This document shows positions 14,982 to 30,326 of a stretch of 45,519 nucleotides of DNA, in pieces. Each line of letters starts with the position of its first letter. Position 1 is the first letter of the stretch. The notes below the pieces were generated by a model. The model ran no database searches. It was not told where the DNA came from and saw only the letters and a program-made list of their open reading frames with translations. Source of the DNA: Bacteriovoracaceae bacterium. Its GTDB lineage: Bacteria; Bdellovibrionota; Bacteriovoracia; Bacteriovoracales; Bacteriovoracaceae. A program made the translations under genes and the position numbers. The stretch spans positions 1-45,519 of the forward strand of contig JBFGZE010000017.1 in assembly GCA_041586955.1 (NCBI GenBank), read 5' to 3'.

Positions 14982-15111
14982 TTTCAATTAATTTTTTATC
15001 CAAGCATCGCCGTCAAACTTGACAAGAGAACTAAATAGTTAAATTATCAGAGATATTTTTAATATTTTATTTTTGTAATATTTGGAATATCAAAAAACAA
15101 GGACTAGTTTT

Positions 15112-15762
15112 ATGCAGAAGACGGATCTCTCTGCAATCATTGATAAGCAATTATTAGATGAGCTTCCCATCTTTGAAACTTTTTTTAAAAAAATTGGTTT
15201 TAAAAGAATAGAGGGTGCCATTTATGGCCTTTTGGTTTTGGCCGATAAAGGCCTTTCCAGTGAGGAGATCGAACATGCCCTCAACCTATCCCAATCTGCC
15301 GTTAGCCAGGCCCTCAAAAACCTCACTCATTTTGGTGCCATTGAAACTTATAATGACCGTGAAAGCCGAGTCAAAATTCATACCGCCAAGGCCGATAGCT
15401 TAAGTATCGTCGCCACCATTTTTCGCAAGCGCGAGCAAGAAATGATTGTCGAGTTTAAATCCATGGCCAAGCGCCTTCTCGCTAAAGAAAAACACCCAGG
15501 CGGCCTGCGCTCTCAAAAGTTACAATCCATTGTCCAAACCTGTGATATGGCAGAATTAGTGATGAACTTTGTCATGCAGATGGCGCAACATCCTTTAAGT
15601 GACCGCAATCAAGACCTTTTAAATAAATTTACAACAACCATGGAATTATTATCAAAGGGAATCGACCCCATAGGCAATAAAGCGATCGAAGTCGCACAGG
15701 ATATTAAGTCCAAGATGGGCCATAAGCTAAAGGAAGGCCTATGGCGAGTAATAGGAGAATAG
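15112..15762 (+). CDS. GbsR/MarR-family winged-helix regulator heading the lipid operon
   Basis: GFKRIEGAIYGLL...LSSEEIEHALNLSQSAVSQALKNL; ATG 15112 after AAGGA; 3 bp before fabF. Confidence 0.85.
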   Translation: MQKTDLSAIIDKQLLDELPIFETFFKKIGFKRIEGAIYGLLVLADKGLSSEEIEHALNLSQSAVSQALKNLTHFGAIETYNDRESRVKIHTAKADSLSIVATIFRKREQEMIVEFKSMAKRLLAKEKHPGGLRSQKLQSIVQTCDMAELVMNFVMQMAQHPLSDRNQDLLNKFTTTMELLSKGIDPIGNKAIEVAQDIKSKMGHKLKEGLWRVIGE

Positions 15763-15765
15763 AGA

Positions 15766-16989
15766 ATGGATCGAATTGTGATTACTGGAGTTGGCCTCAC
15801 CTCTCCCATAGGAAATAACCTAAAAGATATGCGAGAAAATCTTTTAGCAGGTAAATCTGGCGTGCAAATATCTGATGTCCGCCATATGGGCCCTTTACCG
15901 GCCGGCCTTTGCCAATTCGATGAAAGTAAATACCTCTCCAAGAAAATGAGACGCAGAGGAACACGCGCTGGCTCTATTTCTGTTTATTGCGCTAACCAGG
16001 CCATTGAAGATTCCAGCTACCCTTTCGACAATGTCGATAAAGACCGAGTCGGCATTTACCTTGGAATTACAGAGCATGGGAATGTTGAAACAGAAAATGA
16101 AATTCACGAATTATACCAAAATGATCTGAATACAGATTATTGGTCCCATCACCATAACCCTCGAACTGTCGCCAATAACCCCGCTGGAGAAGTAAGTCTT
16201 AATTTAGGAATCACAGGGCCCGCCTACACCATCGGCGCAGCTTGTGCTGCCGGCAATATGGGCCTCATTCATGGCCTGCAAATGCTACGTGCGGGGGAAG
16301 TGGATATGGCCCTTTGTGGAGGTATCTCCGAGAGTGCTGCGACCTTTGGTATCTTTGCCGCTTTTAAAGCTCAAGGAGCATTGGGAGCAAATGAAGACCC
16401 TGCACTCGCCTGTCGCCCCATGGACAAAGATCGCAATGGTATTGTGGTTTCCGAAGGTGGATGTATCTATACCCTTGAACGCCTGGAAGACGCCCAAAAA
16501 CGAGGCGCCAAAATTTATGGCGAAATCATTGGTCATTATGTCAATTCCGACGCCACAGACTTTGTCCTGCCCAATACCGAACGCCAAATCGAATGCATCC
16601 AAAAGGCCTTAAACCGCGCCCAATTATCACCGGCGCAAATCGATATCGTGAATATGCATGCCACTGGTACGGCAATGGGCGATATTCAAGAATGCCAGGC
16701 CGTCGCCCAGGTCTTCGACGACGCCCCTCATACTTCAGTCAACGCGACAAAGGCCCTTATTGGTCACTGCATGGGTGCTGCTGGTGCTTTGGAATTGGCC
16801 GGTAACCTACCCAGCTTTGAAGATGGAATAGTTCATGCTTGCCATAATATTAAAAGCCTCGATCCAGAGTGCGCTATCCGCGGTTTAGTCGTTGGTGAAA
16901 ATCAAGAAAAAGAAGTTAATGTCATTCTCAATAATTCCTTCGGAATGCTGGGGATTAATTCATCTATAATTATCAAAAAGTTTAACTAG
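15766..16989 (+). CDS. fabF: Beta-ketoacyl-ACP synthase (FabF/FabB type), specialised paralog
   Basis: Cys-His-His triad: AACAAG, MHATGT, KALIGH; NNSFG. Confidence 0.92.
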   Translation: MDRIVITGVGLTSPIGNNLKDMRENLLAGKSGVQISDVRHMGPLPAGLCQFDESKYLSKKMRRRGTRAGSISVYCANQAIEDSSYPFDNVDKDRVGIYLGITEHGNVETENEIHELYQNDLNTDYWSHHHNPRTVANNPAGEVSLNLGITGPAYTIGAACAAGNMGLIHGLQMLRAGEVDMALCGGISESAATFGIFAAFKAQGALGANEDPALACRPMDKDRNGIVVSEGGCIYTLERLEDAQKRGAKIYGEIIGHYVNSDATDFVLPNTERQIECIQKALNRAQLSPAQIDIVNMHATGTAMGDIQECQAVAQVFDDAPHTSVNATKALIGHCMGAAGALELAGNLPSFEDGIVHACHNIKSLDPECAIRGLVVGENQEKEVNVILNNSFGMLGINSSIIIKKFN

Positions 16990-17002
16990 GAAAGGAGTTA
17001 AA

Positions 17003-17251
17003 ATGGAAACGACTGCTGTAAGACAAAAAGTTCTCGATATTATTGCCGATGTGGCCATTGATGAGGATGTAACAAATATCGAAGATGGAGTTGCCTTACG
17101 AGATCAACTAGACCTTGATTCCATGGACTTTCTCGATATTGTGATGGAATTAAAAAAACGCCATAAGATTGAAGTTCCCCAAGAGGATTATCCTCAATTG
17201 GCGTCAATGAACTCTTGTGTTGAGTACCTCACTCCAAAATTTCAACAATAA
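17003..17251 (+). CDS. Acyl carrier protein, pathway-dedicated
   Basis: 82 aa; LDSMD phosphopantetheine site; AAGGAG RBS. Confidence 0.93.
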   Translation: METTAVRQKVLDIIADVAIDEDVTNIEDGVALRDQLDLDSMDFLDIVMELKKRHKIEVPQEDYPQLASMNSCVEYLTPKFQQ

Positions 17252-17258
17252 TTTAAAA

Positions 17259-18638
17259 ATGGTAAAAGAATATGATTGCCTCATTATTGGGGCGGGAATG
17301 TCTGGCATGGCCGCGGGTATCCGCTTGGCCATGTTTGGCAAAAAAGTGGCCATTCTAGAAAAACACTCCATAAGTGGAGGACTTAATTCCTATTACCAAA
17401 GAGGTAAACGCCAATTTGATGTGGGTCTCCACGCCATGACCAACTTCGCGGCAAGAGGAGAAAGAAGAAGGCCGTTAACAAAGCTACTTAAGCAATTACG
17501 AATTTCCCACGATCAATTGCAATTGCAACAGCAACAGCATTCGGTCATTCACTTTCCGGACGCCCAATTAAAATTTTCAAATGATTTCGATCTTTTCAGA
17601 GATAGTATTCATACCCACTTCCCCTCACAAGTTGATGGCCTTAATCAATTGCTTAAGACAATAGAGGCCTTTAATGAAACGGCCCTCGATAACCCCTACC
17701 AAAGTGCGAAACAAGTAGTTAGCACATATATCAAGGATGAGCGACTTCTAGAGATGATATTTTGTCCCCTCCTGATTTATGGATCAGCATGGGAAGAGGA
17801 TATGGACTTCTCCCAATTTGTTATTATGTTTAAGAGTATTTTTCTTGAAGGTTTTTGCCGACCTGAAGGCGGAGTGAGAACAATCATTGACCTTTTACTC
17901 GCAAAGCTTAAAGAAGTTGACTGCCCTATCCATTATAAAACAGGTGTCGCCAAAATTAAAACCCATCAGGGAAAGGTGGTTTCAATCATCACCAACAAAG
18001 GAGAGGAATTAAAAACCAAACAAATTCTTTCCAGTGCAGGTTTTCCCGAAACGATGAACCTTATTGACCAAAACACCAATAACCAACCTCGAATTGGACG
18101 ATTAGGATTTACAGAATCTATTCTGATATCACCCACCCGCCCACGAGATTATGATTTAAATACCACTATTATATTTTATAATAATAGTCCCAAATACTAT
18201 TATAAAAGACCCGACTCCCTTTTTGATGGCAATAGTGCCGTTATTTGTTTGCCCAATAATTTCCAAAATCATAACTATGGGGAAGGTGTTTACCGCATTA
18301 CCCATATGGCGAATTATCATCGTTGGAAAGATTTAGAGCGCAAAGAATATTTACAAGAAAAAGAAAAGGTTTTTGAGTTTGATAAAGGCCTATTAGCTCA
18401 ATTAATACCTAACTTTAAAGACGATATTTTATTTAAAGATGTCTTTACCCCGACAACAATTGAACGCTATACCGGACATTTTAATGGTACAGTCTATGGC
18501 TCTCCCGATAAGTCGCGGGACGGTCGCACTCCCATTGAGGGTCTTAACCTATGTGGCACAGACCAAGGCTTCTTAGGAATAATTGGCGCTATGCTCAGTG
18601 GCATTTCCATGGCAAATTACCATGGCCTAATGGATTGA
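17259..18638 (+). CDS. Phytoene desaturase (CrtI)-like FAD oxidoreductase A
   Basis: IIGAGMSG, LEKH...GG, FDVGLH and TPTTIERYT...GTVYG; ATG 17259 follows the ACP stop. Confidence 0.88.
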   Translation: MVKEYDCLIIGAGMSGMAAGIRLAMFGKKVAILEKHSISGGLNSYYQRGKRQFDVGLHAMTNFAARGERRRPLTKLLKQLRISHDQLQLQQQQHSVIHFPDAQLKFSNDFDLFRDSIHTHFPSQVDGLNQLLKTIEAFNETALDNPYQSAKQVVSTYIKDERLLEMIFCPLLIYGSAWEEDMDFSQFVIMFKSIFLEGFCRPEGGVRTIIDLLLAKLKEVDCPIHYKTGVAKIKTHQGKVVSIITNKGEELKTKQILSSAGFPETMNLIDQNTNNQPRIGRLGFTESILISPTRPRDYDLNTTIIFYNNSPKYYYKRPDSLFDGNSAVICLPNNFQNHNYGEGVYRITHMANYHRWKDLERKEYLQEKEKVFEFDKGLLAQLIPNFKDDILFKDVFTPTTIERYTGHFNGTVYGSPDKSRDGRTPIEGLNLCGTDQGFLGIIGAMLSGISMANYHGLMD

Positions 18639-18645
18639 TAAACTT

Positions 18646-19674
18646 ATGAAATATAATAATGTGGTCATAGAGGCCATCGATTATGTTGTACCAGAAACTC
18701 GCCTTACGAGCGATGCCCTAGAGGCGCAATTGGCCCCCCTTTATGATCGGCTTAAATTGCCTTATGGCCGCTTGGAATTAATGACAGGAATTAAGGCCCG
18801 CCGTTTTTGGCCTAGTGGAACTTTTCCGAGTCATATCGCCTCCCAGGCCGGCAAAAAAATACTTGATGAAAAAAATGATCGCAAAGAGCAAATTGATCTT
18901 CTGATTCACGCTTCAGTTTGCCGCGACTTTTTGGAGCCAGCATCTGCCTCTGTTTCCCATAAAATTTTGGGGCTCAAAGACGAATGCATGTTTTTTGATC
19001 TCTCTAATGCTTGCCTTGGAGTCGTTAATTCCATGGCGGTTGCTGCGGATATGATCGAAAAGGGTTCTATTAAAAAGGCCCTAATCCTTTCAGGTGAAAA
19101 CGGTGGACCTTTAGTAGAAAAAACAATTGCAGAGTTATTAAGTCGTAATGACCTGAATCGTAAGAATATAAAATCCTATATTGCCAATTTAACAATTGGC
19201 TCTGCTGGCGTAGCGGTTCTACTCTCCCATAATTCATTGGCACAAGGTCCACGTTTAACTGGAGGAGTTGTTTATTCTGATTCCGCCTCCAACCATCTAT
19301 GCCGTGGTGATGGCGATGTTCAAGGTCTAAGTATGCATACCGACTCCGAGGCCCTTTTAAAAGCGGGTATTACCCTCACTCAAAAGACCTGGAAGAAAGC
19401 TCAAAGCGAATTAGATTGGACGCATGAACAATTCAATTGGGTCCTAGGCCATCAAGTTGGTAAGGCCCACCAAGAGCAAGTCTTAAAAGGACTCGACTTT
19501 CATCAACACCCAACTTTTACCACTTATGAAGAGTTTGGGAATACTGGATCTGCAGCTCTGCCGTTAACCTTGGCAAAACTCAAAGAAACAAATCAAATCA
19601 AAAATGGTGATCAATTATTATTAGTGGGAATTGGCTCCGGCCTCTCTTCCATTATGCTAGGAGTTGAATGGTGA
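18646..19674 (+). CDS. oleA: OleA, head-to-head acyl condensing enzyme (thiolase/FabH fold)
   Basis: Catalytic residues in LEPAS, NACLG, GHQVG and GNTGS; first gene of oleABCD synteny. Confidence 0.9.
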   Translation: MKYNNVVIEAIDYVVPETRLTSDALEAQLAPLYDRLKLPYGRLELMTGIKARRFWPSGTFPSHIASQAGKKILDEKNDRKEQIDLLIHASVCRDFLEPASASVSHKILGLKDECMFFDLSNACLGVVNSMAVAADMIEKGSIKKALILSGENGGPLVEKTIAELLSRNDLNRKNIKSYIANLTIGSAGVAVLLSHNSLAQGPRLTGGVVYSDSASNHLCRGDGDVQGLSMHTDSEALLKAGITLTQKTWKKAQSELDWTHEQFNWVLGHQVGKAHQEQVLKGLDFHQHPTFTTYEEFGNTGSAALPLTLAKLKETNQIKNGDQLLLVGIGSGLSSIMLGVEW

Positions 19675-20546
19675 ACCAATCAATGCAAGAGATACCTACA
19701 GCCCTCAAGGCCGAATACCCATTTCCCTCCAATTTTCACACGACAAGAGATGGCCACAAACTCCATTATTTAGATGAAGGAAAGGGCGAAGTCCTGATCC
19801 TCGTCCATGGTAATCCCACATGGTCATTTTTTTACCGCAATCTTGTTAAACATTTAAGTAAGCGCTTTCGGGTCATTGTTCCTGACCATATTGGCATGGG
19901 CCTTTCTGATCACCCCCAAGATTATAATTATTGTTTAGAAAACCATATTAATAATCTTAAAGAACTAACCAACTCTCTTAATATTTCAAATTACTCACTT
20001 GGAGTTCATGATTGGGGTGGTGCTATAGGCCTAGGTCTTGCCACCGATTGCCCTGAGAAATTACAAAAATTAATTATTCTCAATACCGCAGCATTTACAA
20101 CACCCATTATTTCTAAGCGTATAGACCTTCTTCGCAAAGGTCCTTGGTCCGAATGGATGATTCGCCGATTTAATGGCTTTGCCTGGCCGGCCACATTTAT
20201 GGCGGTCACTAAAAAACTAGATAAAAATATTAAAAATGGTTACCTCTTCCCTTATCATGACTATAAAAGTCGTATTGCCACTGCAAAGTTTGTGAAAGAT
20301 ATTCCCATGTCAGAGGATCATCCAAGCTATCATACCTTGCTTAATATCGAAAAAAGTTTGCCAATGATCAATTGCCCCAAGCTCATTATTTGGGGAGGTA
20401 AGGATTTTTGTTTCCACGATTATTTTTATAAAAAATGGAACGCCATTTACCCTGATGCTGAAACCATGTACCTGAAAAATGCCGGACATTATGTTTTGGA
20501 AGATGAACCGTTGAAATGTTTGGAAAGAATAGAGCAGTTTTTATGA
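19668..20546 (+). CDS. oleB: OleB, beta-lactone decarboxylase (haloalkane dehalogenase-like alpha/beta hydrolase)
   Basis: HGNPTWSF, HDWGG, KDFCF and GHYVLED; start overlaps the oleA stop. Confidence 0.9.
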   Translation: MVNQSMQEIPTALKAEYPFPSNFHTTRDGHKLHYLDEGKGEVLILVHGNPTWSFFYRNLVKHLSKRFRVIVPDHIGMGLSDHPQDYNYCLENHINNLKELTNSLNISNYSLGVHDWGGAIGLGLATDCPEKLQKLIILNTAAFTTPIISKRIDLLRKGPWSEWMIRRFNGFAWPATFMAVTKKLDKNIKNGYLFPYHDYKSRIATAKFVKDIPMSEDHPSYHTLLNIEKSLPMINCPKLIIWGGKDFCFHDYFYKKWNAIYPDAETMYLKNAGHYVLEDEPLKCLERIEQFL

Positions 20547-22198
20547 AAAGTGCTGAATATAACGTCGCTTTTTCCGTTAATCAATGGATTTTGAAATTAC
20601 CTCAAAAAGAAGCACTGGTGCTCGGTAAAAATTGCGGCGGACAATATCAATACTCGGGACTCACTTTTTTTGAGTTAGGTGAGCGGATTGATCGATACGC
20701 TCAGCAATTATTGGCCGAAGGCCTTAAACCTGGTATGAAAACGCTGGTTTTTCTCAAGCCAGGTCTGGAATTCGCCCCTTTAACCTTTGCCCTATTTAAG
20801 ATTGGAGTGATCCCTGTTTTTATTGACCCTGGCATGGGAGTTAAAAACCTTCTTTCGGCCATTAAAGAAGTTCGACCAGAAGGTCTCATCGCAGAACCCA
20901 TAGTTCATGCCATTGCCAAAATTTTTAAAGGAACATTTTCCTCAATTCAATTTTATTTTATTCGCAAGAAAGTTCCCTTTATCTTTAGCAATATTCCCGT
21001 GCTTGGCCGACCAAAAAAAAACCTGCAAGAGAAAGTCACGATGCTACCAGTAGCTAAGGAGCAAATGGCAGCAATCTTGTTTACCTCCGGTGGAACAGGC
21101 GTTCCCAAAGGTGTGGTCTATACCCATGGCATTTTCAATGCCCAGATAAAAATGCTCAAAGAAATGTTCGCCTTAACGGATCAGGATATCGATATTCCGG
21201 GCTTTCCTTTATTTTCTCTTTTCACCTTGGCGATGGGTATGAAATCATGCCCCCCAGATATGAACCCGGCCAGGCCAGCACAGGCGAACCCGCGTAAGCT
21301 GGTACAAAATATTCTAGACCAAAAAGCAACGTTTGTCGCCGGCAGCCCTGCCATCTGGGAAAAGGTGGCACAGTTTTGCGTCGCTCATAATATAACTCTC
21401 CCCACTGTCAAATATTTAGTGATGTTCGGTGCCCCTGTGCGCCCGGAAATTCATCAAATGTTTTCACAGGTACTGACAAACGGGACGACCTATACTCCCT
21501 ATGGTGCGACGGAATGCCTACCAGTTAGTTGCATTCGAGGAGACACTCTCCTTCAAGATTTTCTCCCCTATATGAAGGAAGGAAAGGGGACCTGCGTCGG
21601 TCTCCCAACTCCAGGCCAAAGAGTTGCCATTATACCGATCAATGATGGAATCATTCCAGAGTTTGATCTCGAAACAGGCGCCTTACCCCCTTATCAGATT
21701 GGTGAAGTGGTCGTTCAAGGTCCAACTGTCACCCCCCAATATTATAAACGCGACAAGCAAACAGCTCTCGCCAAAATGCATGATAAAGATGGCCATATCT
21801 GGCACCGAATGGGTGATTTAGGATACTTGGATGAACAAGGTCGCCTATGGTTTGCCGGCCGTAAAAATCACCGTGTTGTTACTCAAAAAGGACTCCTCTC
21901 ACCGATCCAATGTGAGGCCATCTTCAATCGCCACCCTGCGGTCAAACGCACGGCACTCATAGGCCTAGGGCCTTATGGCCAACAACGCCCGGGTCTTATC
22001 ATTGAATGGAAAAAGATGGGAATGATTACACATCATAAACAAGACCTCCTTGAATTAAAACAAATGGCAAATGATTTTCCCCATACTCAAGAAATAGATT
22101 TTTTTATGGGTTATCGGAAATTTCCTGTCGATATCCGCCATAATATAAAAATTGATCGCAATGCCTTAAGAAATTGGGCGGCCAAAAGGGTACAATAA
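20543..22198 (+). CDS. oleC: OleC, beta-lactone synthetase (AMP-dependent ligase family)
   Basis: IDPGMG, FTSGGTGVPKG, YGATE, HRMGD and FPVDIRHN.KI; ATGA overlap with oleB. Confidence 0.9.
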   Translation: MKSAEYNVAFSVNQWILKLPQKEALVLGKNCGGQYQYSGLTFFELGERIDRYAQQLLAEGLKPGMKTLVFLKPGLEFAPLTFALFKIGVIPVFIDPGMGVKNLLSAIKEVRPEGLIAEPIVHAIAKIFKGTFSSIQFYFIRKKVPFIFSNIPVLGRPKKNLQEKVTMLPVAKEQMAAILFTSGGTGVPKGVVYTHGIFNAQIKMLKEMFALTDQDIDIPGFPLFSLFTLAMGMKSCPPDMNPARPAQANPRKLVQNILDQKATFVAGSPAIWEKVAQFCVAHNITLPTVKYLVMFGAPVRPEIHQMFSQVLTNGTTYTPYGATECLPVSCIRGDTLLQDFLPYMKEGKGTCVGLPTPGQRVAIIPINDGIIPEFDLETGALPPYQIGEVVVQGPTVTPQYYKRDKQTALAKMHDKDGHIWHRMGDLGYLDEQGRLWFAGRKNHRVVTQKGLLSPIQCEAIFNRHPAVKRTALIGLGPYGQQRPGLIIEWKKMGMITHHKQDLLELKQMANDFPHTQEIDFFMGYRKFPVDIRHNIKIDRNALRNWAAKRVQ

Positions 22199-23181
22199 TG
22201 AAAATTCTCGTCACTGGAGGTGGTGGTTTTTTGGGTCAAGCGCTTTGCCGAAGACTGATTGCGGAGGGACATACCGTCACAAGCTTTTCTCGCTCTCTAT
22301 ACCCCTCTTTAAAAGATATGGGTGTTATTTCACTCCAAGGTTCTGTTGCCGACTTCCCTGCCTTAAGGCAGGCCCTGCGTGATCAAGACGCCTGCTTTCA
22401 TACTGCCTCAAAGGTTGCGATGTGGGGAAAATGGGAGGATTTCTACCAGACAAATACCATTGGTACCCAAAATGTTATCCAAGCGATGAAGGACGAAGGG
22501 GTTCCACTGCTCATCTATACCTCTACCCCAAGTGTCGTTTTCGGCACCGAGGATTTAATTAATATTGATGAATCAATGCCTTACCCACAACGATCATTAA
22601 GTCGCTACGCACGTTCCAAGCGCTTGGCCGAAGAAATGGTTCTAGCGGCCAATGGCGAGGATCTCCAAACGGTTTCTCTTCGTCCCCACTTAATGTTTGG
22701 CCCAGGAGATTCTAATCTTCTCCCCCGTTTAATAGATGCCCATAGAAAAAAACGCTTAAAACAAATTGGCGATGGCCTGAATATGGTGGATGTTCTTTAT
22801 ATTGAAAATGCTGTTGATGCTCATGTCCAGGCACTTCATAAAATGATAACGGCACCCCAATCAATCACAGGTAGGGCCTTTTTCCTAGGACAAGGTCCGG
22901 TGAATCTATGGGCCTTCATCAATAAAATTATGGAAAAAAATGATTTACCGCCAGTTCATAAAAAAATGAATTTTAAAAAGGCCTACGCCCTTGGGTCGAT
23001 CATCGAGGGTTTTCTTTCTCTTTTTGGTCGCTACCACGTTGAACCACCCATGACACGCTTCGTGGCCTTACAATTGGCGAAAAATCATTATTTTGACCAT
23101 AGTAAGAGTCACCATGATTTAGGATGGCAACCCAAAATAGATGTAGATGAGGGTCTAAAACGCTGGCAAGCGTCCTTATAA
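22198..23181 (+). CDS. oleD: OleD, 2-alkyl-3-oxoalkanoate reductase (extended SDR)
   Basis: TGGGGFLG, YTSTPSVV, YARSK and LRPHL.FGPGD; TAATG coupling with oleC. Confidence 0.9.
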   Translation: MKILVTGGGGFLGQALCRRLIAEGHTVTSFSRSLYPSLKDMGVISLQGSVADFPALRQALRDQDACFHTASKVAMWGKWEDFYQTNTIGTQNVIQAMKDEGVPLLIYTSTPSVVFGTEDLINIDESMPYPQRSLSRYARSKRLAEEMVLAANGEDLQTVSLRPHLMFGPGDSNLLPRLIDAHRKKRLKQIGDGLNMVDVLYIENAVDAHVQALHKMITAPQSITGRAFFLGQGPVNLWAFINKIMEKNDLPPVHKKMNFKKAYALGSIIEGFLSLFGRYHVEPPMTRFVALQLAKNHYFDHSKSHHDLGWQPKIDVDEGLKRWQASL

Positions 23182-23183
23182 AA

Positions 23184-24461
23184 TCATGCTATTTTAAGGA
23201 TAATGTCCTCGTGATCTTCATCTCCATAGGCCTTTGATTCATCCTGAGTGAAATGGCCACATAATAATTGAATGGCCTGCACCCACTCAAAATGCTTGCC
23301 TTCTACCGACATACCAACAATATTACCATCTCGGATATTTTTAACACTGGCCTTTATTTTAAGTACATTAAAATCCTCAAGGCGCACTAGGATTTCAATA
23401 CTTTCTCCGTCCTCAAGTCCCTTTTCAAGTTGTGCCATCAATCCACGAGTACTAGCATTAATGACCCGTCCATTAATACTAGATCCATCAAGGCGCATTA
23501 CTCGACAAGGAAAATCAACAGTCATACGCACCGTTTGGCGCAGACGTTTAGTAGGTACTTTACTTTGAATTGGTAAGATATGTTGATATTTATTCGATGT
23601 ATATAGTTCCGATAATATTACTTTTTCTCTTTGTTCCAATGTTTCAAAGGTATCTGTCAAGGTATTAAAAAAATGGTTCAAAGTATCGGGGCCCATTTGT
23701 GAATCGAAGGTTTTATTCAAAAAACGCTCTGGAAATTGAAAACAATCCATTTTAACTTCATGAAAATAATGCCATATATTTTGACTGTTATTTTTTCCAT
23801 AATAAAAATACGCCAATTGAAAAACCGCTGTCTTTAAATTTAGCATTTGAACAATTGCTGGTGCTCCTTGAGCAAATTCATATTCATTAATATATTCAGA
23901 AATTTGTTCAAAGCCCAATATCGATTGATAGAAATATTTCCATTTAGGATGATGAGCAATCACAAAGTATTGAAGATCGAAATAGCGGCACGAATATTCA
24001 TACATAAACTTAAAAAGAGGAAAAAGTATTTTCCCATTAAAACTATTATGGCCCTTCTTAATGGCCAATGATGAAACTTCCCCAATATGCTCGCCAGGCC
24101 TTGTGTATTCATTTAAATTTAAAACTTTACCAACGGGGAGGCCAAAATCTCCATTTTTAATTATACTAACAGTTCCCACCACCTCTTCACCTAATTTGGC
24201 AATCAATATCGTTGTGGTTGGCAAGGCGTGATAAGAAGTCACTCTAACTTTTTCTGGATGTTCTTCCATATAGCCTTCAGCAACATAAGCATCATGTAAT
24301 AATTGAAATGCCTGCTCAAATTCATCATGAGTTTCTGCCACTTTAAATATTAAAGATGAATCGAGCTTTTCTTCAAGGTTAATCCGCTTGCAAATTTTTT
24401 TTCGGATATAACGAGGACCCCAAGAAAATCGATTAATGAAATTAAAAAATTGGTTCTTCAT
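23184..24461 (-). CDS. FeeM-like N-acyl amino acid synthase fused to a C-terminal PilZ domain
   Basis: AFQLLHDAYVAEGY, VVGTVSI...GLP, GEVSSLA and FYQSILGF (FeeM/GNAT core); RQTVR plus NASTRG (PilZ RxxxR and N/DxSxxG). Confidence 0.82.
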   Translation of the reverse strand: MKNQFFNFINRFSWGPRYIRKKICKRINLEEKLDSSLIFKVAETHDEFEQAFQLLHDAYVAEGYMEEHPEKVRVTSYHALPTTTILIAKLGEEVVGTVSIIKNGDFGLPVGKVLNLNEYTRPGEHIGEVSSLAIKKGHNSFNGKILFPLFKFMYEYSCRYFDLQYFVIAHHPKWKYFYQSILGFEQISEYINEYEFAQGAPAIVQMLNLKTAVFQLAYFYYGKNNSQNIWHYFHEVKMDCFQFPERFLNKTFDSQMGPDTLNHFFNTLTDTFETLEQREKVILSELYTSNKYQHILPIQSKVPTKRLRQTVRMTVDFPCRVMRLDGSSINGRVINASTRGLMAQLEKGLEDGESIEILVRLEDFNVLKIKASVKNIRDGNIVGMSVEGKHFEWVQAIQLLCGHFTQDESKAYGDEDHEDIILKIA

Positions 24462-24490
24462 TTAACTCCCGCCAGTTTATCGTATCAAAC

Positions 24491-24518
24491 TGATCGGTTT
24501 TTAAGCAAAAATACTTTA
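24491..24518 (-). promoter_or_regulatory. sigma28-like promoter for the FeeM-PilZ gene
   Basis: Minus strand TAAA-N16-ACCGATCA, about 30 bp above the ATG; GGGAG RBS. Confidence 0.5.
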
Positions 24519-24538
24519 GTCGATTTCAGCACTGATTT

Positions 24539-26557
24539 TTAAGGGTTTATACTGGCCTGGGCCTGTAAATTGTCCTCTATTAGACGGCGCTGAATAAGAC
24601 CGGTGCCCTTAAATTGACCTTGTTTTTTATAAAATAGGATTGGGTGTCCATAACGATTGAAGGCCTCCAATTTATTATGAATAAAAAGTCCATTCGCTCC
24701 AAAAAATGCCTTGAGAAAATCAAGATTTTTAAGCTCAATTGCCAATTGATCGACAAAGCTTTTAAATCGCCATAGTGGGACTTTTCCTTCGAAGGAGCCG
24801 CGTTCCAAGCGTTTTTTCTCATAAAGGCAATTGCGGATAAGCCGAAAACGTAAATGAAAGGATGATTTTTTTACGCGTGATCGACAGGCGCGGAAATCAC
24901 TTTTATAGTGAGAACTATTTGATAACTCTTTGGTGTAGCGTTTAAAGTTTTTTTTAAGGCCCCTTTTACAGCGATTAAAGAAACTTAGAAAACGAAAATA
25001 CCGACGCCGGTCTTTGTTTTGACAAACTTTTTTAATGAGGCCATAAACGTCGTTAATTTTTAATTGATTAAAGTAAATCACACCTTTGGGATTAACAACT
25101 TGTGAAACCATTAGTTTTAAAGGTGGTACAACGAGTCCTGTTTTGACGCCATTTTGAAGCACCTTCGAGTCCGGTATAAAATTGTGAATACGATTACCCC
25201 ATCTTTTTTTCTCTTTATGCTTCCCTATTTTTTTCCACTTTTGCAAACGCCAAAAATGACTAAAGCTAATCGAAAAATTTTCTTTGTCTTTAGAAATGGT
25301 ATATTTGTCTTTGTTCTGTATTACATTAAAGGCACTTTCATATTCAATCCTGTCCCCACGCTTTTCTTCAACCCGCGCGACCTTTTGAGAAGTTGTCTGG
25401 AAGGCCCAATCAAAAACAACACCCCAAAGAAAGCTCCATATTCCTTGTTTGTTTTTACTTTTGAAAAATTGGTGGCCAAAATAAGTGGTCTTTTTCTGAT
25501 CTTTGATAATTTCGACCATTTCAGTTTCAGCATTTTTCTCACCATGAAAAAGAAGGAAATCAATACGCGAGGATAGCTTCTCCATCTTACGAACTTCTAA
25601 GGCCACTTGATAGGGAATTAAAGTATGATGATTATCAAATTTACCGCGAATAAATTCTCTTAACTCAAAATCTGAAGCAATAAGTGCTTCTTGATCACCT
25701 GATGACAAACTCATATGAGCAATCATTTGCTCTTCAAAGCTATATTGCAATTCGACTTGGAATAATTTGATTTTAAGGGCCTTGAAAAATTGAGCGTAGA
25801 GACCTAAAATACCTAGTGTCGATATTTCCTTTTCTTTTTTAAAACTTAATTTTAATTGCTGATCTTCTTCGCTTTTCCAAATTTCTACGGAAAAAATACG
25901 ACTCACCTGGATACTGCCACCTGCGGCGATGGCCATATAGGGATTTACTGGCATATTCGTCAACCCATGAGCATTAAATACAAATCGATCATTCTGATTC
26001 CAAACCTCTCCAGGTGCTAAAGTTCTCTTTCCTCTTAAATCGGGACCCATTAAAATGAGCGGTATAGAATTAATATCAATAATAAGGCCTTCTTCAAAAG
26101 TGGAAGAAAAATGCGCCAAACGGATCTCCCTTTCGAAAGAAAGTCCCACAAACCCTGCCAAGGCCTTATCTGTAATATTGAGTTTATTTTGGTCTCGCAG
26201 CCCTTTGATTAAAGGATAGGCTTCCACTCGGAGGGTAATTTTATCAGTCACCACATAGCGACTATCGTGAAAAAGATCTGGAGCTAAGTCCCTTCTCCAC
26301 TCAACAGAAAAGTCTGTCCAAGAGAAATGTTTACGGAACCCTATAAAGTTTGGGCCACCGTAGACACCATCCTTTCCAGGTAATACAGGTTTACCTTCCT
26401 GCTGGCCGATACTATCCTGCAAGCGCTCCGCTATACTTTGATAAATATGAGAATGTTGGTTGAAAAAAAATTGATTATCTATAGTACTTGCCGCCATTGA
26501 GGTCTTAATGCCTAAATAAAATACAACAGTGATAAAAATACTACGAACCAGACCCAT
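24539..26557 (-). CDS. Large secreted hypothetical protein with basic C-terminal region
   Basis: 672 aa ORF, signal peptide ending SMA, beta-rich centre; no family recognised. Confidence 0.8.
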   Translation of the reverse strand: MGLVRSIFITVVFYLGIKTSMAASTIDNQFFFNQHSHIYQSIAERLQDSIGQQEGKPVLPGKDGVYGGPNFIGFRKHFSWTDFSVEWRRDLAPDLFHDSRYVVTDKITLRVEAYPLIKGLRDQNKLNITDKALAGFVGLSFEREIRLAHFSSTFEEGLIIDINSIPLILMGPDLRGKRTLAPGEVWNQNDRFVFNAHGLTNMPVNPYMAIAAGGSIQVSRIFSVEIWKSEEDQQLKLSFKKEKEISTLGILGLYAQFFKALKIKLFQVELQYSFEEQMIAHMSLSSGDQEALIASDFELREFIRGKFDNHHTLIPYQVALEVRKMEKLSSRIDFLLFHGEKNAETEMVEIIKDQKKTTYFGHQFFKSKNKQGIWSFLWGVVFDWAFQTTSQKVARVEEKRGDRIEYESAFNVIQNKDKYTISKDKENFSISFSHFWRLQKWKKIGKHKEKKRWGNRIHNFIPDSKVLQNGVKTGLVVPPLKLMVSQVVNPKGVIYFNQLKINDVYGLIKKVCQNKDRRRYFRFLSFFNRCKRGLKKNFKRYTKELSNSSHYKSDFRACRSRVKKSSFHLRFRLIRNCLYEKKRLERGSFEGKVPLWRFKSFVDQLAIELKNLDFLKAFFGANGLFIHNKLEAFNRYGHPILFYKKQGQFKGTGLIQRRLIEDNLQAQASINP

Positions 26558-26913
26558 TTTTTCTTTTTTTCGAAATCACCCCTCCTCGACGAACGTCCTA
26601 CAAATTAGCGTAAAGGTGCTTCAATATTGATATTTCAGGATTCATCGTAGCAATGAAGGATGACGTCGATAGACTTTATTGAAAAATTAGAGCAATTCCT
26701 TTTAAATACTAAGGACTTAATTCAAAATAAAAAAAGAACAACAAAAAATGAGACGCCATCAAAAGTGCCCCAATTAAATTGCAGTACAATTACCTAAAAA
26801 GAAATTAAGCTATTTTTTAAGAAAACTATGACAAGGTTTTAAATGGGAAAAACCAGAATTATTAGCTGATGGCCTTTATATGAAATGGTAATAAATTAAC
26901 CCCTGTCGCTTTG

Positions 26914-27711
26914 TTAAAGGTCTTTAGCGACAGTCTTCACAACATCTTGATCAAAATAATTGCAACTCATTCCCGCATCTACCACAATCCCAGAAGCGTT
27001 TATGCCACTTGACATAGAACTTAAAAGAAAAAGAACAGTATTGGCCACTTCTTGAGTATGCAAGGCCTCTTTTCTTAAAGTCAATTTTTCAGCAAATAAA
27101 TAATTATCAATATAACCAGGAATACCGGCGGATGCTGTGGTTTTTAATGGCCCAGCACAAACGGCATTAAATCTTACCCGCGAAAACTCTGAAAAACTCT
27201 TGGCCAGAAAAGCAACCGTGGCATCTAAAGACGCTTTGATCGGTCCCATATATCCATAACTAGTGGCCCGTGTATTGGAGATCGACATAGTAACGACTGA
27301 AGAATTCTCTTTAAGTACATTTTTTATGCTATGACTCATACTCGTTAAGCTAAAGCACGAGATGGTATTGGCCTGGACATAATCTGCTAATTTAGTCTCA
27401 TGAAAAGGTTTAATCCCCTGTGAATAATTGGCGAAGGCCATTGAGTGAAGGAAGCCATCAAGTTGAATCCCCTGACTCTCTAAGGCAGGCCCCAATTGTG
27501 TAACTTGCTCTTCATTTTCGACATCTACAATAAAACAAGGAACGTCTGGAAATAGTTTTTCCACTTTAGACAAGACCTGTTCATTTTGAACTGTTAAATA
27601 GATATGGGCACCGCTTTCACACAGAGATTGAGCGACAAAATAGGCAATCGATTTTTTATTAGCGACGCCAGAGATAAGAAAACTTTTTCCTTTGAGATTT
27701 AATAAATTCAT
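26914..27711 (-). CDS. fabI: Enoyl-ACP reductase, divergent FabI
   Basis: GVANKKSIA, HSMAFA, YGYMGPIKASL and NAVCAGPLKT. Confidence 0.88.
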   Translation of the reverse strand: MNLLNLKGKSFLISGVANKKSIAYFVAQSLCESGAHIYLTVQNEQVLSKVEKLFPDVPCFIVDVENEEQVTQLGPALESQGIQLDGFLHSMAFANYSQGIKPFHETKLADYVQANTISCFSLTSMSHSIKNVLKENSSVVTMSISNTRATSYGYMGPIKASLDATVAFLAKSFSEFSRVRFNAVCAGPLKTTASAGIPGYIDNYLFAEKLTLRKEALHTQEVANTVLFLLSSMSSGINASGIVVDAGMSCNYFDQDVVKTVAKDL

Positions 27712-28142
27712 TCTGTATTCCCTACCACTGTTCCGGTAAATTTTATCGCCATCACTAATTTGCCATTAACCCGCGTACGCCCAGTCATATAAAAAGCATT
27801 GGCCATTTCTTCATCTAAGGTCACTTCCATTTCTAAAGTATCACCTGGTTTGACAAAGTTTTTAAACTTAACTTGTTCCACTCGAGAGACAACACCGAGC
27901 CCAGATTGAACCTGACCTCGAAGTCCCATTAAAAGTGCACCACTTTGAAATACGGCCTCTTGTAATAGCACACCTGGCATAATAGGATTTCCCGGAAAAT
28001 GTCCTTTAAAAAAGTCTTCCTTACCGGTTAAATGCAACTTAGTGACAATCTTATTATCTTGGCGTTCGTTAATTTCATCAACAAAGAGAAAGGGTTCTCT
28101 TTGAGGAATATTCTCTAAAATAATAGGGTCAACTTGCCTCAC
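27708..28142 (-). CDS. fabZ: 3-hydroxyacyl-ACP dehydratase
   Basis: PQREPFLFVD and FFKGHFPGNPIMPGVLLQEA (His/Glu dyad); 4 bp overlaps with both neighbours. Confidence 0.92.
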   Translation of the reverse strand: MRQVDPIILENIPQREPFLFVDEINERQDNKIVTKLHLTGKEDFFKGHFPGNPIMPGVLLQEAVFQSGALLMGLRGQVQSGLGVVSRVEQVKFKNFVKPGDTLEMEVTLDEEMANAFYMTGRTRVNGKLVMAIKFTGTVVGNTE

Positions 28143-28885
28143 GCCAGTCCTCCTGTAATTTCTAAACTGGCACCAGTAATATAACTCGCCTCTTTTGAGG
28201 CCAGGAAAAGAACTGCCTGTGCCACTTCAGTAATAGTACCAAAGCGCTTCATGGGAACTTGCTTTTTATATTCCTTCACCTGCTCATCAGAAAGATCACC
28301 AATCAATTCGGTCTCAATAAAGCCAGGTAGGACATTATTAACTGTAATCCCCCTTTTAGCGACTTCCTTGGCCAGGCTTTTAGACAAAGCAACCTGGCCC
28401 GCTTTTGAAGCAGAATAATTTGCCTGACCCGCCAGGCCCAGCTCTCCACCAATAGAACTCATATTTACGATACGCCCATAGCGCTTCTTCATCATCAAAA
28501 GAACCGCTTTTTGGGCCATTAAATATGTTCCCTTTAAATTGGTATCAAGAACCTGATCCCAATCGTCCTCGGAAAGAGAGGCCAATATATTATCGCGGCG
28601 AATACCACCGTTATTGACCAAGACATCGACCTTACTATAAGTCTCTTCAATATATTGAAAAAATGTCGTTACCTCTTCACCATTGCTAATATCAAATTTA
28701 CGTAAATCCAATTGAGCACCCTGTTCACCTAAGTTATTTTTAAAGGACAATGCCTTTTCATCATTAGAACGATAAGTGGCAATAACTGTGGCCCCTTGCT
28801 GTAAGAATGCCTGACTGATACCTCCACCGATACCACGAGTTCCACCTGTCACGATGACAATCTGATCTTTAAAATTCATATTCAT
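28139..28885 (-). CDS. fabG: 3-oxoacyl-ACP reductase
   Basis: TGGTRGIG, NNGGIRRD, GQANYSASK and PGFIET. Confidence 0.93.
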   Translation of the reverse strand: MNMNFKDQIVIVTGGTRGIGGGISQAFLQQGATVIATYRSNDEKALSFKNNLGEQGAQLDLRKFDISNGEEVTTFFQYIEETYSKVDVLVNNGGIRRDNILASLSEDDWDQVLDTNLKGTYLMAQKAVLLMMKKRYGRIVNMSSIGGELGLAGQANYSASKAGQVALSKSLAKEVAKRGITVNNVLPGFIETELIGDLSDEQVKEYKKQVPMKRFGTITEVAQAVLFLASKEASYITGASLEITGGLA

Positions 28886-28898
28886 TGCTTTTTCCTTA

Positions 28899-30326
28899 TT
28901 ATCCTAAATAATTCTCTACTTCATGACTTTGAATCACACCATAGTTCGCCGCGCCCAACCAACCCGACATAATAATCCCCACACTGCCGCTATGAAAAAG
29001 TCCATCAATTTGTTGATGAAGATTTTTACTAACCGGTAATCCTTCAAATTTCGTCCCAAAACTGGCTCCTTTTTGATGGTGGGTATACTTCTCAATAGTC
29101 AATGGCGTCGAAGCATCGATAAAATCAATTTTCTCTCGCACTCCTGGTACGATCTTTTCTAAACATACCAGTGCTCTTTCCATTAACCGTTTTTTGCGTA
29201 ATTCATATTCTTCTGGCGATAACCCCACCCAATCTTCGTAACGAGCATTGGAGGAAGAGACCACTGTATATTTCTTTTCTTCAAGATGAGGGCGAATTTC
29301 TGGATAATAGACAGAGAATGTTTGGCTACCAACTTCTGGTGATAAAATTAAATCCGTATTAAATTGCTCATCATCAGAATAGAAAATAAGCTCACCAATA
29401 TCAGGGAGCGCTTCACCACTCTTTAACCCCATAAAAACTTGGCAACTAGAGGAATTTAATCGCACCTTACGAGATTCTTCGACAAACTCTGGAGTAAAGT
29501 GCTCCTCTCCTACCATTTTAAAGATGGTCGAATGAAGATTAGCATTAGAGAGGACCGATTGTGCGGAAATAAACTCCCCCTCTAATTCAACTCCCGTCGC
29601 CACCTTTTTACCATTACGCTCTTCAATACAAATTTTTTCAACTTTAGAATGCAATTTAATATCGACGTTATTAGCAAGGAGTTCTTCTTTCATCATAGAG
29701 ATTAATTGCTCCGTCCCCCCTTGAAAAATATACACGCCTTTACTCATAAAATTGGAAAAAACGATACCATAAGAAATAGCGGGGTCCTCTAACGTGGAGC
29801 CATTGGCATACACAATGGGCTCAATGAGAAAACGCGTAATATCGTTGCGCCCTGGGAAATATTTTTCAAATAATTCTCCGTTAGTCATTTGATTGCCATC
29901 ATAAAAATTCATGGCACCCAATTCATCAAAAAATCCCTGGGCCGTTTCTGGTGCGACATTAAATTTATCAACAAGAGTTTCTATAAAATGTTCTTTGGTA
30001 AAATCTGTTTCAACAGAAAATTGCGGATTGATATAGCGAACTTTTTTCACTTGAATAATCGCATCGGCGATTTTTTTATTCCAATACTTGCGACAGGTTT
30101 TAATCATTCCAACAGGAAAACCATGCAAAGATATGTCAAAAATATGCTGGCCCTGTTTGCGCCGAAACCAAGTGGCAAAACCACCTAATTTATTATGCGC
30201 TTCTAAGAGTAAAACCTTTCGTCCATTTTTTGCCAATTTATTGGCCGCCGTCATACCGGCAAGGCCTGAGCCAATAACGATCACATCATAAGGCCCATTC
30301 GGCCTTTCCTTTTTCTTTAATAACAT
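28899..30326 (-). CDS. Phytoene desaturase (CrtI)-like FAD oxidoreductase B
   Basis: [24 protein letters not shown] and [14 protein letters not shown]; first gene of the right-hand operon. Confidence 0.88.

Follow-up and report, generated by a model that had tools for sequence, protein, structure and literature searches.

Results

A lipid gene locus spread over two convergent operons

We analyzed a 45,519-nucleotide (nt) stretch of a Bacteriovoracaceae genome (contig JBFGZE010000017.1 of assembly GCA_041586955.1; "the window" below means this whole stretch), whose source organism is a probable predatory member of Bacteriovoracia (Bdellovibrionota). The locus of interest combines the four genes of the OleABCD olefin pathway with genes resembling those of type II fatty acid synthase (FAS-II) and with two flavoproteins, here called Fp1 and Fp2. 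Genes were called from an open reading frame (ORF) map together with Pfam and NCBIfam scans of the 45.5-kb window; the Pfam scan covered 36 of the 57 window ORFs of at least 90 amino acids (aa) and an 82-aa acyl carrier protein (ACP), thus 37 proteins, and the remaining 21 ORFs are shorter and overlap scanned ones. The genes form a plus-strand block at 15082–23181 and a minus-strand block at 30326–26914, and the two blocks are convergent. Inside either block, neighboring genes are separated by gaps of 3–13 nt or overlap by 4–31 nt (ORF coordinates). An initial annotation, made from the sequence alone, had described this gene content and two convergent, tightly coupled operons, and both descriptions are borne out by the ORF map, Pfam and NCBIfam. 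In transcription order, the plus-strand block is followed by the minus-strand block; FAD stands for flavin adenine dinucleotide, and scores are in bits:

15082–15762, plus strand: winged-helix (TrmB/MarR-like) regulator; PF01978 (TrmB), E-value 1.4e-5 over residues 36–93, with weak MarR/ArsR-type NCBIfam matches
15766–16989, plus strand: FabF-like beta-ketoacyl-ACP synthase (KS); PF00109 and PF02801
17003–17251, plus strand: dedicated ACP, 82 aa; PF00550
17259–18638 (or from 17217), plus strand: Fp1, CrtI/CrtISO-superfamily FAD enzyme; PF01593 and PF13450
18646–19674, plus strand: OleA, head-to-head Claisen-condensing thiolase; NF006720, 393.6, over the cut-off of 285
19668–20546, plus strand: OleB, alpha/beta-hydrolase (beta-lactone decarboxylase); PF00561, position between oleA and oleC, HDWGG nucleophile motif in the translation
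20516–22198, plus strand: OleC, olefin beta-lactone synthetase (AMP-dependent ligase family); NF006754, 581, over the cut-off of 478
22174–23181, plus strand: OleD, 2-alkyl-3-oxoalkanoate reductase; PF01073, NF042422 350.6 and NF042423 348 (cut-off 580)
28899–30326, minus strand: Fp2, second CrtI/CrtISO-superfamily FAD enzyme; TIGR02730 (best curated model) 111.6 against a cut-off of 586.9, crtI_fam 80.2 against 238.1
28139–28885, minus strand: FabG-like 3-oxoacyl-ACP reductase (KR); TIGR01830 289.3 against 297.75, subfamily model NF009466 254.6, over its cut-off of 222
27708–28142, minus strand: FabZ-like 3-hydroxyacyl-ACP dehydratase (DH); PF07977, NF000582 108.4 against 113
26914–27711, minus strand: FabI-like enoyl-ACP reductase (ER); PF13561, top FabI model 162.8 against 370

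The ole genes keep the order oleA-oleB-oleC-oleD with overlaps of 7–31 nt, and oleA starts only 7 nt past Fp1 within the plus-strand operon. OleA aligns end to end with PDB entry 3ROW (E-value 9.1e-67; 6e-23 for the best other entry of the beta-ketoacyl-ACP synthase III family), which carries the depositors' name "3-oxoacyl-[ACP] synthase III" and which we take to be the OleA of Xanthomonas campestris. Its four catalytic residues, Glu97, Cys123, His269 and Asn299, assigned by reference to the X. campestris enzyme, are conserved in all 49 sequences compared. The top NCBIfam models for OleB are of the haloalkane-dehalogenase type, every one of them below its cut-off. OleC stays below equivalog level against the olefin beta-lactone synthetase models (NF045786, 471 with a cut-off of 900; NF045785, 456 with a cut-off of 850); OleD also falls short of the curated equivalog scores, and its runner-up model, HpnA at 135.8 bits, is far behind the olefin-pathway models. 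OleC and OleD are therefore divergent members, assigned by best match and synteny. With the OleA catalytic residues in place and homologues of OleB, OleC and OleD adjoining oleA, the four genes belong to the OleABCD system.

The fatty acid genes are intact in their catalytic residues and, at the same time, distinct from the housekeeping forms. The closest PDB entries to the KS are FabF enzymes (E-value 1.6e-65), and its full Cys-His-His triad (Cys160, His298, His334) is invariant in 72 of 72 sequences, but its score against the fabF model TIGR03150 is 310.5 bits with a cut-off of 493.75. Similarly, the phosphopantetheine Ser40 of the ACP is kept in 66/66 sequences while its top NCBIfam model gives 42 bits against 66. 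Ser144, Tyr157 and Lys161 of FabG and His48 and Glu62 of FabZ are unchanged in all 28 sequences of their respective sets, and Tyr152 and Lys159 of FabI in all 40. FabF, ACP, FabZ and FabI thus lie below the equivalog cut-offs of housekeeping FAS-II, as would fit a specialized paralogous set, and the 37 Pfam-scanned proteins show no fabD, fabH, plsX or acc context. The same scan revealed no domains of pfa polyunsaturated fatty acid synthases or polyketide synthases, of phytoene or squalene synthases, or of radical S-adenosylmethionine (SAM) enzymes, in agreement with the initial annotation, and no SAM methyltransferase, noncanonical FabF or phenylacetyl-CoA ligase genes. That annotation had also called the module self-contained. 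The window does encode KS, KR, DH, ER and a private ACP, but FabD (malonyl-CoA:ACP transacylase), phosphopantetheinyl transferase (PPTase) and thioesterase domains are absent from the scanned proteins, and the term is too strong.

Two flavoproteins outside the carotenoid families

Fp1 and Fp2 share 23% identity. For Fp1, a GTG at 17217 keeps the ORF open and would make it overlap the ACP gene; the ATG at 17259 agrees with the homologues and with a 459-aa database copy. The best curated model for Fp1, as for Fp2, is the carotenoid isomerase family TIGR02730 (carot_isom), at 111.3 bits against a cut-off of 586.9, with the crtI_fam model TIGR02734 giving 61.6 against 238.1; by score, neither protein belongs to CrtI or CrtISO. 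Their predicted structures resemble carotenoid desaturases. The AlphaFold models (pLDDT, the predicted local distance difference test, 95.1 for Fp1 and 87.2 for Fp2) both have the gamma-carotenoid desaturase 4REP as top fold match with a template modeling (TM) score of 0.74, followed by 3KA7, CrtI (4DGK), plant phytoene desaturase (5MOG) and amine oxidases, all at 12–18% identity, and profile searches agree with the fold matches (E-values 2e-23 and 6e-14). In the GxGxxG motif of Fp1, the first two glycines are invariant in 57/57 sequences and the third is a glycine in 55 of them. Judged by these models, both proteins have the fold and the FAD-binding motif of the CrtI/CrtISO superfamily; the low scores against curated models place them in the CrtI/amine-oxidase superfamily but outside CrtI or CrtISO proper. 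Databases label these flavoproteins "phytoene dehydrogenase" or "carotenoid isomerase". The gene context contradicts these labels. Phytoene or squalene synthase is found neither among the 37 window proteins nor among 91 neighbor proteins of 18 related loci.

The Fp1 family is discrete; 1.84 billion representative sequences include 228 matches at E ≤ 1e-30 and, at E ≤ 0.001, 5157. Fp2 is unusually conserved, with 52–66% identity between phyla and a mean column identity of 63%. A search for longer forms returned one protein, the metagenomic P0271 of 1020 aa, a natural Fp1-Fp2 fusion whose halves are 41% identical to Fp1 and 51% to Fp2. The fusion suggests that the two flavoproteins act together; the search produced no ACP-Fp or KS-Fp fusions, an absence that is weak evidence.

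In a quick Fp2 tree of 37 rows (the window and 36 of 46 Fp2 ORFs, without eight ORFs whose predicted starts made them too long and two Smithella rows that were near-duplicates), the window groups with Bacteriovoracia and Smithella with full support, and Nitrospinota, Chloroflexota and Verrucomicrobiota each form coherent groups. With a Smithella Fp2 as query, the 120 best matches belong to Smithella/Syntrophaceae and then Bacteriovoracia, with no Desulfotalea, Geobacter or anammox names among them; kuste3336, kuste3607, DP2405 and DP2406 are likewise not among the 120 best flavoprotein matches listed.

The cassette recurs across phyla

With a 19-sequence Fp1 alignment as query, at least 595 Fp1 relatives were confirmed in a genome set that represents each GTDB species once. 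Locus counts below refer to the best 80 of these, for which up to 10 kb was fetched on either side and the window proteins were mapped by tblastn, keeping hits at E ≤ 1e-8 that covered 50% or more of the query and choosing the best query for each interval; for counting, KS, OleA, OleC, OleD and FabG matches of less than 35% identity were removed. What is conserved is a cassette of seven non-ole genes, KS-ACP-Fp1-Fp2-(KR)-DH-ER, carried in the 80 loci by Bdellovibrionota, Smithella, Chloroflexota, Nitrospinota, Planctomycetota and Verrucomicrobiota; the initial annotation had correctly named similar gene sets in the last two phyla. The ACP lies directly 5' of Fp1 in 72 of 77 loci with at least 400 nt upstream, and the KS is found upstream in that arrangement in 66 of 71 loci with at least 1800 nt. 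Fp2 is present in at least 48 of the 80 loci, immediately 3' of Fp1 in 34 of the 48, and FabZ, FabI and FabG in at least 44, 40 and 31, respectively, these numbers being lower bounds since many contigs are short. Between phyla, cassette KS proteins share 57–74% identity with that of the window. Given the adjacency of ACP and KS to Fp1, the arrangement in the window is no chance juxtaposition. The order KS-ACP-Fp1-Fp2-(FabG)-FabZ-FabI on a single strand is ancestral-looking; in the window, as in Smithella, an insertion of oleABCD separates Fp1 from Fp2.

A link to ole genes had been predicted as well, and it is seen across phyla: OleA is found in 48 of the best 80 loci, and the position of the ole genes differs by lineage:

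Bdellovibrionota: OleA in 20/21 loci; oleABCD 3' of Fp1, as in the window
Smithella/"Delta": OleA in 7/8 loci; oleABCD between Fp1 and Fp2, on a single strand
Chloroflexota: OleA in 8/10 loci; oleA alone, heading the cassette
Verrucomicrobiota: OleA in 10/17 loci; oleA-oleB 3' of FabI, oleC and oleD not within reach
Planctomycetota: OleA in 3/12 and OleD in 6/12 loci; oleABCD-regulator 5' of the cassette
Nitrospinota: OleA in 0/10 loci; ole genes absent within 10 kb

Linkage in differing gene orders between phyla argues for selection on the linkage itself. The coupling to ole is not universal, and the Nitrospinota, Chloroflexota and Opitutaceae loci indicate that the cassette can exist without a complete local Ole pathway.

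The regulator is the first gene of the plus-strand operon, and position 15112, where the initial annotation had it begin, is an internal or alternative ATG of the same ORF. A homologue stands directly 5' of the KS in 14 of the 80 loci, ten from Bdellovibrionota and four from Planctomycetota, and a Halobacteriovorax marinus genome has the layout regulator-KS-ACP-Fp1-oleABCD. A Pfam survey of 91 neighbor proteins from 18 related loci found no pfa genes, and radical SAM genes in two atypical loci only (L047 and L055). Two loci from Chloroflexota and one from Phycisphaerae have an Sfp-type PPTase gene directly 3' of FabI.

A few loci have other neighbors. In two from Nitrospinota, the cassette begins right after ispF (L032, 7637–8113; L040, 7641–8201), with dxr and cdsA also upstream in L040. 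In the Chloroflexota loci L033 (15269–18722) and L042 (15029–18450), an oleA-like gene comes first and the Sfp-type PPTase gene last, with oleBCD not in reach; beyond the cassette, the opposite strand encodes a DUF362 protein and a protein with a Condensation domain. In Smithella (L014, 1823–4000; also L016, L019 and L022), two tandem KS-like genes, 26–29% identical to the window KS and reminiscent of KS/chain-length-factor pairs, lie upstream on the opposite strand.

Other features of the window

The minus strand resumes 356 nt past FabI with two genes on which the initial annotation was silent and which fall inside the interval that it had delimited:

24539–26557, minus strand: 672-aa hypothetical protein with a signal-peptide-like N-terminus; no Pfam or NCBIfam match
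23184–24461, minus strand: fusion of FeeM (N-acyl amino acid synthase) and PilZ (cyclic di-GMP-binding) domains; PF21926, E-value 2.9e-36, and PF07238, E-value 1.3e-6

Look-alikes of the 672-aa protein in the Atlas are hypothetical proteins, mainly from Bdellovibrionota, and weak homologues (22–28% identity) stand beside ole genes in 4 of the 80 loci, all Bdellovibrionota; it is probably not part of the module. The FeeM-PilZ gene ends 2 nt from the oleD stop codon and is found beside the cassette in none of the 80 loci; it is not conserved with the cassette.

Rfam gave zero matches in the window, and promoter-like and terminator-like sites are not enriched over shuffled sequences (43 and 22 sites in the window, against 38.9 and 15.7 in the shuffles). 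A 1626-aa ORF at 36604–41484 on the plus strand has no Pfam match at E ≤ 1e-5.

Discussion

The proposed pathway

The genes, their intact catalytic residues, the carotenoid-desaturase-like folds of the predicted models and the cross-phylum synteny describe a form of the Ole system that is joined to a widespread, uncharacterized FAS-II/twin-flavoprotein cassette, for which a plausible but unproven mechanism can be drawn. We give a probability of roughly one half to the reading that the locus is a single lipid-biosynthesis unit over two convergent operons, in which a segregated FAS-II line makes chains that the flavoproteins modify and OleABCD turns into unsaturated olefins. In such a pathway, housekeeping FAS would provide the acyl primers and malonyl units, and the chains would be extended on the private ACP by the private KS, KR, DH and ER. 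Fp1 and Fp2 would then act as a pair, without O2, to add or shift carbon–carbon double bonds in the ACP-tethered chain. Finally, OleA would join two such chains head to head, and reduction by OleD, beta-lactone closure by OleC and decarboxylation by OleB would release a long-chain internal olefin carrying extra unsaturation. The substrates, the chemistry of the flavoenzymes, the hand-over to OleA and the product are what we infer.

That the flavoenzymes may install or move double bonds, as the initial annotation had proposed, is suggested by analogy. Desaturation next to an existing double bond would have a precedent in UfaD, a phytoene-dehydrogenase-like enzyme of furan fatty acid synthesis in Rhodobacter that desaturates a fatty acyl chain (PMC7380195), and the CrtISO-like best model suggests isomerization as a candidate activity. 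Two further published precedents bear on the pathway as a whole: Desulfotalea psychrophila, which has an adjacent pair of phytoene-dehydrogenase-like ORFs in FAS-II clusters and forms C31:8 and C31:9 without pfa (PMC2649909), and the OleA of H. marinus, shown to be active (PMC7064751) and coming from a species in which one genome has the window's layout. The linkage data speak to the substrate and to the destination of the chains: Fp1 and Fp2 are tied to KS and ACP more tightly than to ole, which favors ACP-bound chains over a finished hydrocarbon as the substrate, and the fact that oleA or oleABCD has joined the cassette more than once, in gene orders that differ, favors a functional link between the cassette product and head-to-head condensation.

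Several observations weigh against this pathway. FabD, PPTase and thioesterase are lacking in the window, and the Nitrospinota loci have no ole gene within 10 kb (0/10), Chloroflexota only oleA and Opitutaceae only oleA and oleB. Even where both flanks reach 9 kb or more (32 loci), oleA is found in 19, oleB in 16 and oleC and oleD in 12 each; moreover, the 80 loci are the closest Fp1 relatives only, so the counts are no unbiased census. The cassette includes FabI, which makes full reduction also available to the line; its default product would then be saturated, and a desaturase or isomerase line would require the flavoenzymes to compete with the ER or to act after it. The P0271 fusion is a single case, from one contig of 4.4 kb, and could stem from misassembly or a frameshift. 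Javidpour et al. (2016) found that anammox clusters expressed in Escherichia coli yielded no new fatty acids and that the homologues were without CrtI activity (PMC4790861). The literature searched, with subscription journals outside its coverage, gave no product, substrate or activity for any cassette protein, no paper on the cassette together with ole genes and none pairing Opitutaceae with hentriacontanonaene. The initial annotation's term "uncharacterised route" stands to that extent, but a hypothesis of this kind was already in print: Rattray et al. (2009) proposed FAS-II with phytoene-desaturase-like enzymes as a novel anaerobic desaturation or polyunsaturated fatty acid route (PMC2649909).

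Alternative explanations

The cassette may instead be an independent specialized fatty acid line, making for example an unusual membrane acyl chain, and a mere neighbor of ole in some lineages, with OleABCD working on bulk acyl-CoA. Such independence would suit the Nitrospinota cassettes, which lie next to ispF, dxr and cdsA without nearby ole genes, and the several Planctomycetota and Verrucomicrobiota cassette loci that have no ole genes, as well as the activity that H. marinus OleA showed when assayed in E. coli with no cassette present (PMC7064751). It does not sit well with the linkage of oleA in at least four gene orders, heading the cassette in Chloroflexota, as a terminal oleAB in Opitutaceae, as oleABCD upstream in Planctomycetota and as oleABCD inside it in Smithella and Bacteriovoracia, nor with the window, where oleA and Fp1 share one operon with 7 nt between them; we regard the explanation as rather unlikely. 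The flavoproteins could also tailor the finished Ole product, desaturating beside, or isomerizing, the cis double bond at the center of the long-chain olefin or ketone much as CrtI and CrtISO act on 15-cis-phytoene, while FAS-II only sets the chain length. Their closest folds are indeed carotenoid desaturases, enzymes with long-hydrocarbon substrates, their best curated model is a carotenoid isomerase, and Fp1 directly precedes oleA in the window. Against this, Fp1 and Fp2 stay between the ACP and KR/DH/ER when ole genes are missing from the surrounding 10 kb, as in Nitrospinota (0/10 loci with ole), and their adjacency to ACP (72/77) and KS (66/71) is tighter than that to ole (48/80 for OleA); tailoring of the finished product seems quite improbable.

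The most conventional explanation would be that the fab-type genes are the organism's housekeeping FAS and the flavoproteins unrelated neighbors. The set does span KS, KR, DH, ER and ACP with all catalytic residues intact, but all five proteins score under the curated housekeeping cut-offs, the window lacks fabD, fabH, plsX and acc context, and a seven-gene cassette with both flavoproteins, its KS 57–74% identical to that of the window, recurs across phyla. It is very improbable, and we rejected it on the sub-cut-off scores and the conserved context.

Implications

The pathway through a private ACP and OleABCD, at even odds in our view, can be extended to a more specific proposal that we think unlikely on present evidence. 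The cassette would be a dissociated, O2-independent polyunsaturated-acyl synthase, in which a reduced-flavin CrtISO-like pair replaces the dehydratase-isomerase of FabA or Pfa and sets cis or skipped double bonds on the private ACP during elongation; it would supply 16:4-type precursors of C31:8 and C31:9 in pfa-less bacteria (Desulfotalea, Opitutaceae, Planctomycetota, Bacteriovoracia) and could explain the phytoene-dehydrogenase homologues of ladderane clusters.

Bacteria make unsaturated acyl chains by FabA/FabB-type isomerization and O2-dependent desaturases, and by the Pfa megasynthase. Should the cassette supply the Ole pathway, it would be a third bacterial route to such chains; it would account for polyunsaturated C31 hydrocarbons in bacteria without pfa and offer a first point of entry to the phytoene-dehydrogenase homologues whose part in ladderane biosynthesis has long been suspected. 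The gene set is compact, seven genes and oleABCD, and present in cultivable aerobes, and the proposal is thus directly testable. It also matters for annotation, as the names "phytoene dehydrogenase" and "carotenoid isomerase" are at odds with the cassette context.

Comparison with known systems

Like the OleABCD systems of Xanthomonas, Shewanella and Micrococcus, the window has the identical four genes in the same order, the OleA residues are kept, and OleC and OleD match olefin-pathway models best; unlike them, it adds a private KS, ACP, KR, DH and ER and two flavoproteins to the ole operon structure, and its OleC and OleD lie under the equivalog cut-offs. The flavoproteins share with CrtI, CrtD and CrtISO the fold and the FAD-binding motif (4REP at TM 0.74, with 4DGK and 5MOG also matching), but identity is only 14–18%, the scores are 61–111 bits against cut-offs of 238–587, and their neighbors are fatty acid rather than isoprenoid genes. 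Likened by description, UfaD is also a phytoene-dehydrogenase-like FAD enzyme, which adds a second double bond beside an existing one; it differs in that its substrates are phospholipid-bound methylated chains, that O2 is proposed to be required and that no KS/ACP set lies alongside (PMC7380195).

On the fatty acid side, the locus can be compared with the "ladderane" clusters. In Kuenenia, Desulfotalea, Geobacter and Pelobacter, Rattray et al. (2009) found phytoene-dehydrogenase-like and radical SAM genes clustered with those of FAS-II (PMC2649909). According to the same source, Desulfotalea psychrophila makes C31:8 and C31:9 hydrocarbons without pfa, and its flavoproteins in FAS-II clusters include an adjacent phytoene-dehydrogenase-like pair, DP2405 and DP2406. 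Like the window, these anammox/Desulfotalea-type clusters have an extra FabF, ACP, FabZ and FabG together with amine-oxidase/phytoene-dehydrogenase-like flavoproteins, for which O2-free desaturation of acyl-ACP was proposed (PMC2649909). They differ in possessing radical SAM, SAM methyltransferase, noncanonical FabF and phenylacetyl-CoA ligase genes, all lacking in the window, and in the placement of FabI, found in unrelated clusters there (PMC2649909, legend of Fig. 4) and within the cassette here; the window, unlike them, is linked to ole.

In its proposed logic, finally, the locus resembles the pairing of Pfa with ole in Shewanella and Geobacter bemidjiensis. There, too, a dedicated synthase is proposed to supply unsaturated precursors to OleABCD: Shulse and Allen (2011; PMC3098273) linked pfa-like clusters with ole genes, doing so for 44 of 80 genomes, and the polyunsaturated Ole precursors of Shewanella come from the Pfa megasynthase (PMC3098273, PMC4882568). 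No multidomain PfaA–D synthase is encoded within the window. Pfa is a type I megasynthase with FabA-like dehydratase/isomerase domains, whereas the window holds a dissociated type II set with a FabZ-type DH and two flavoproteins.

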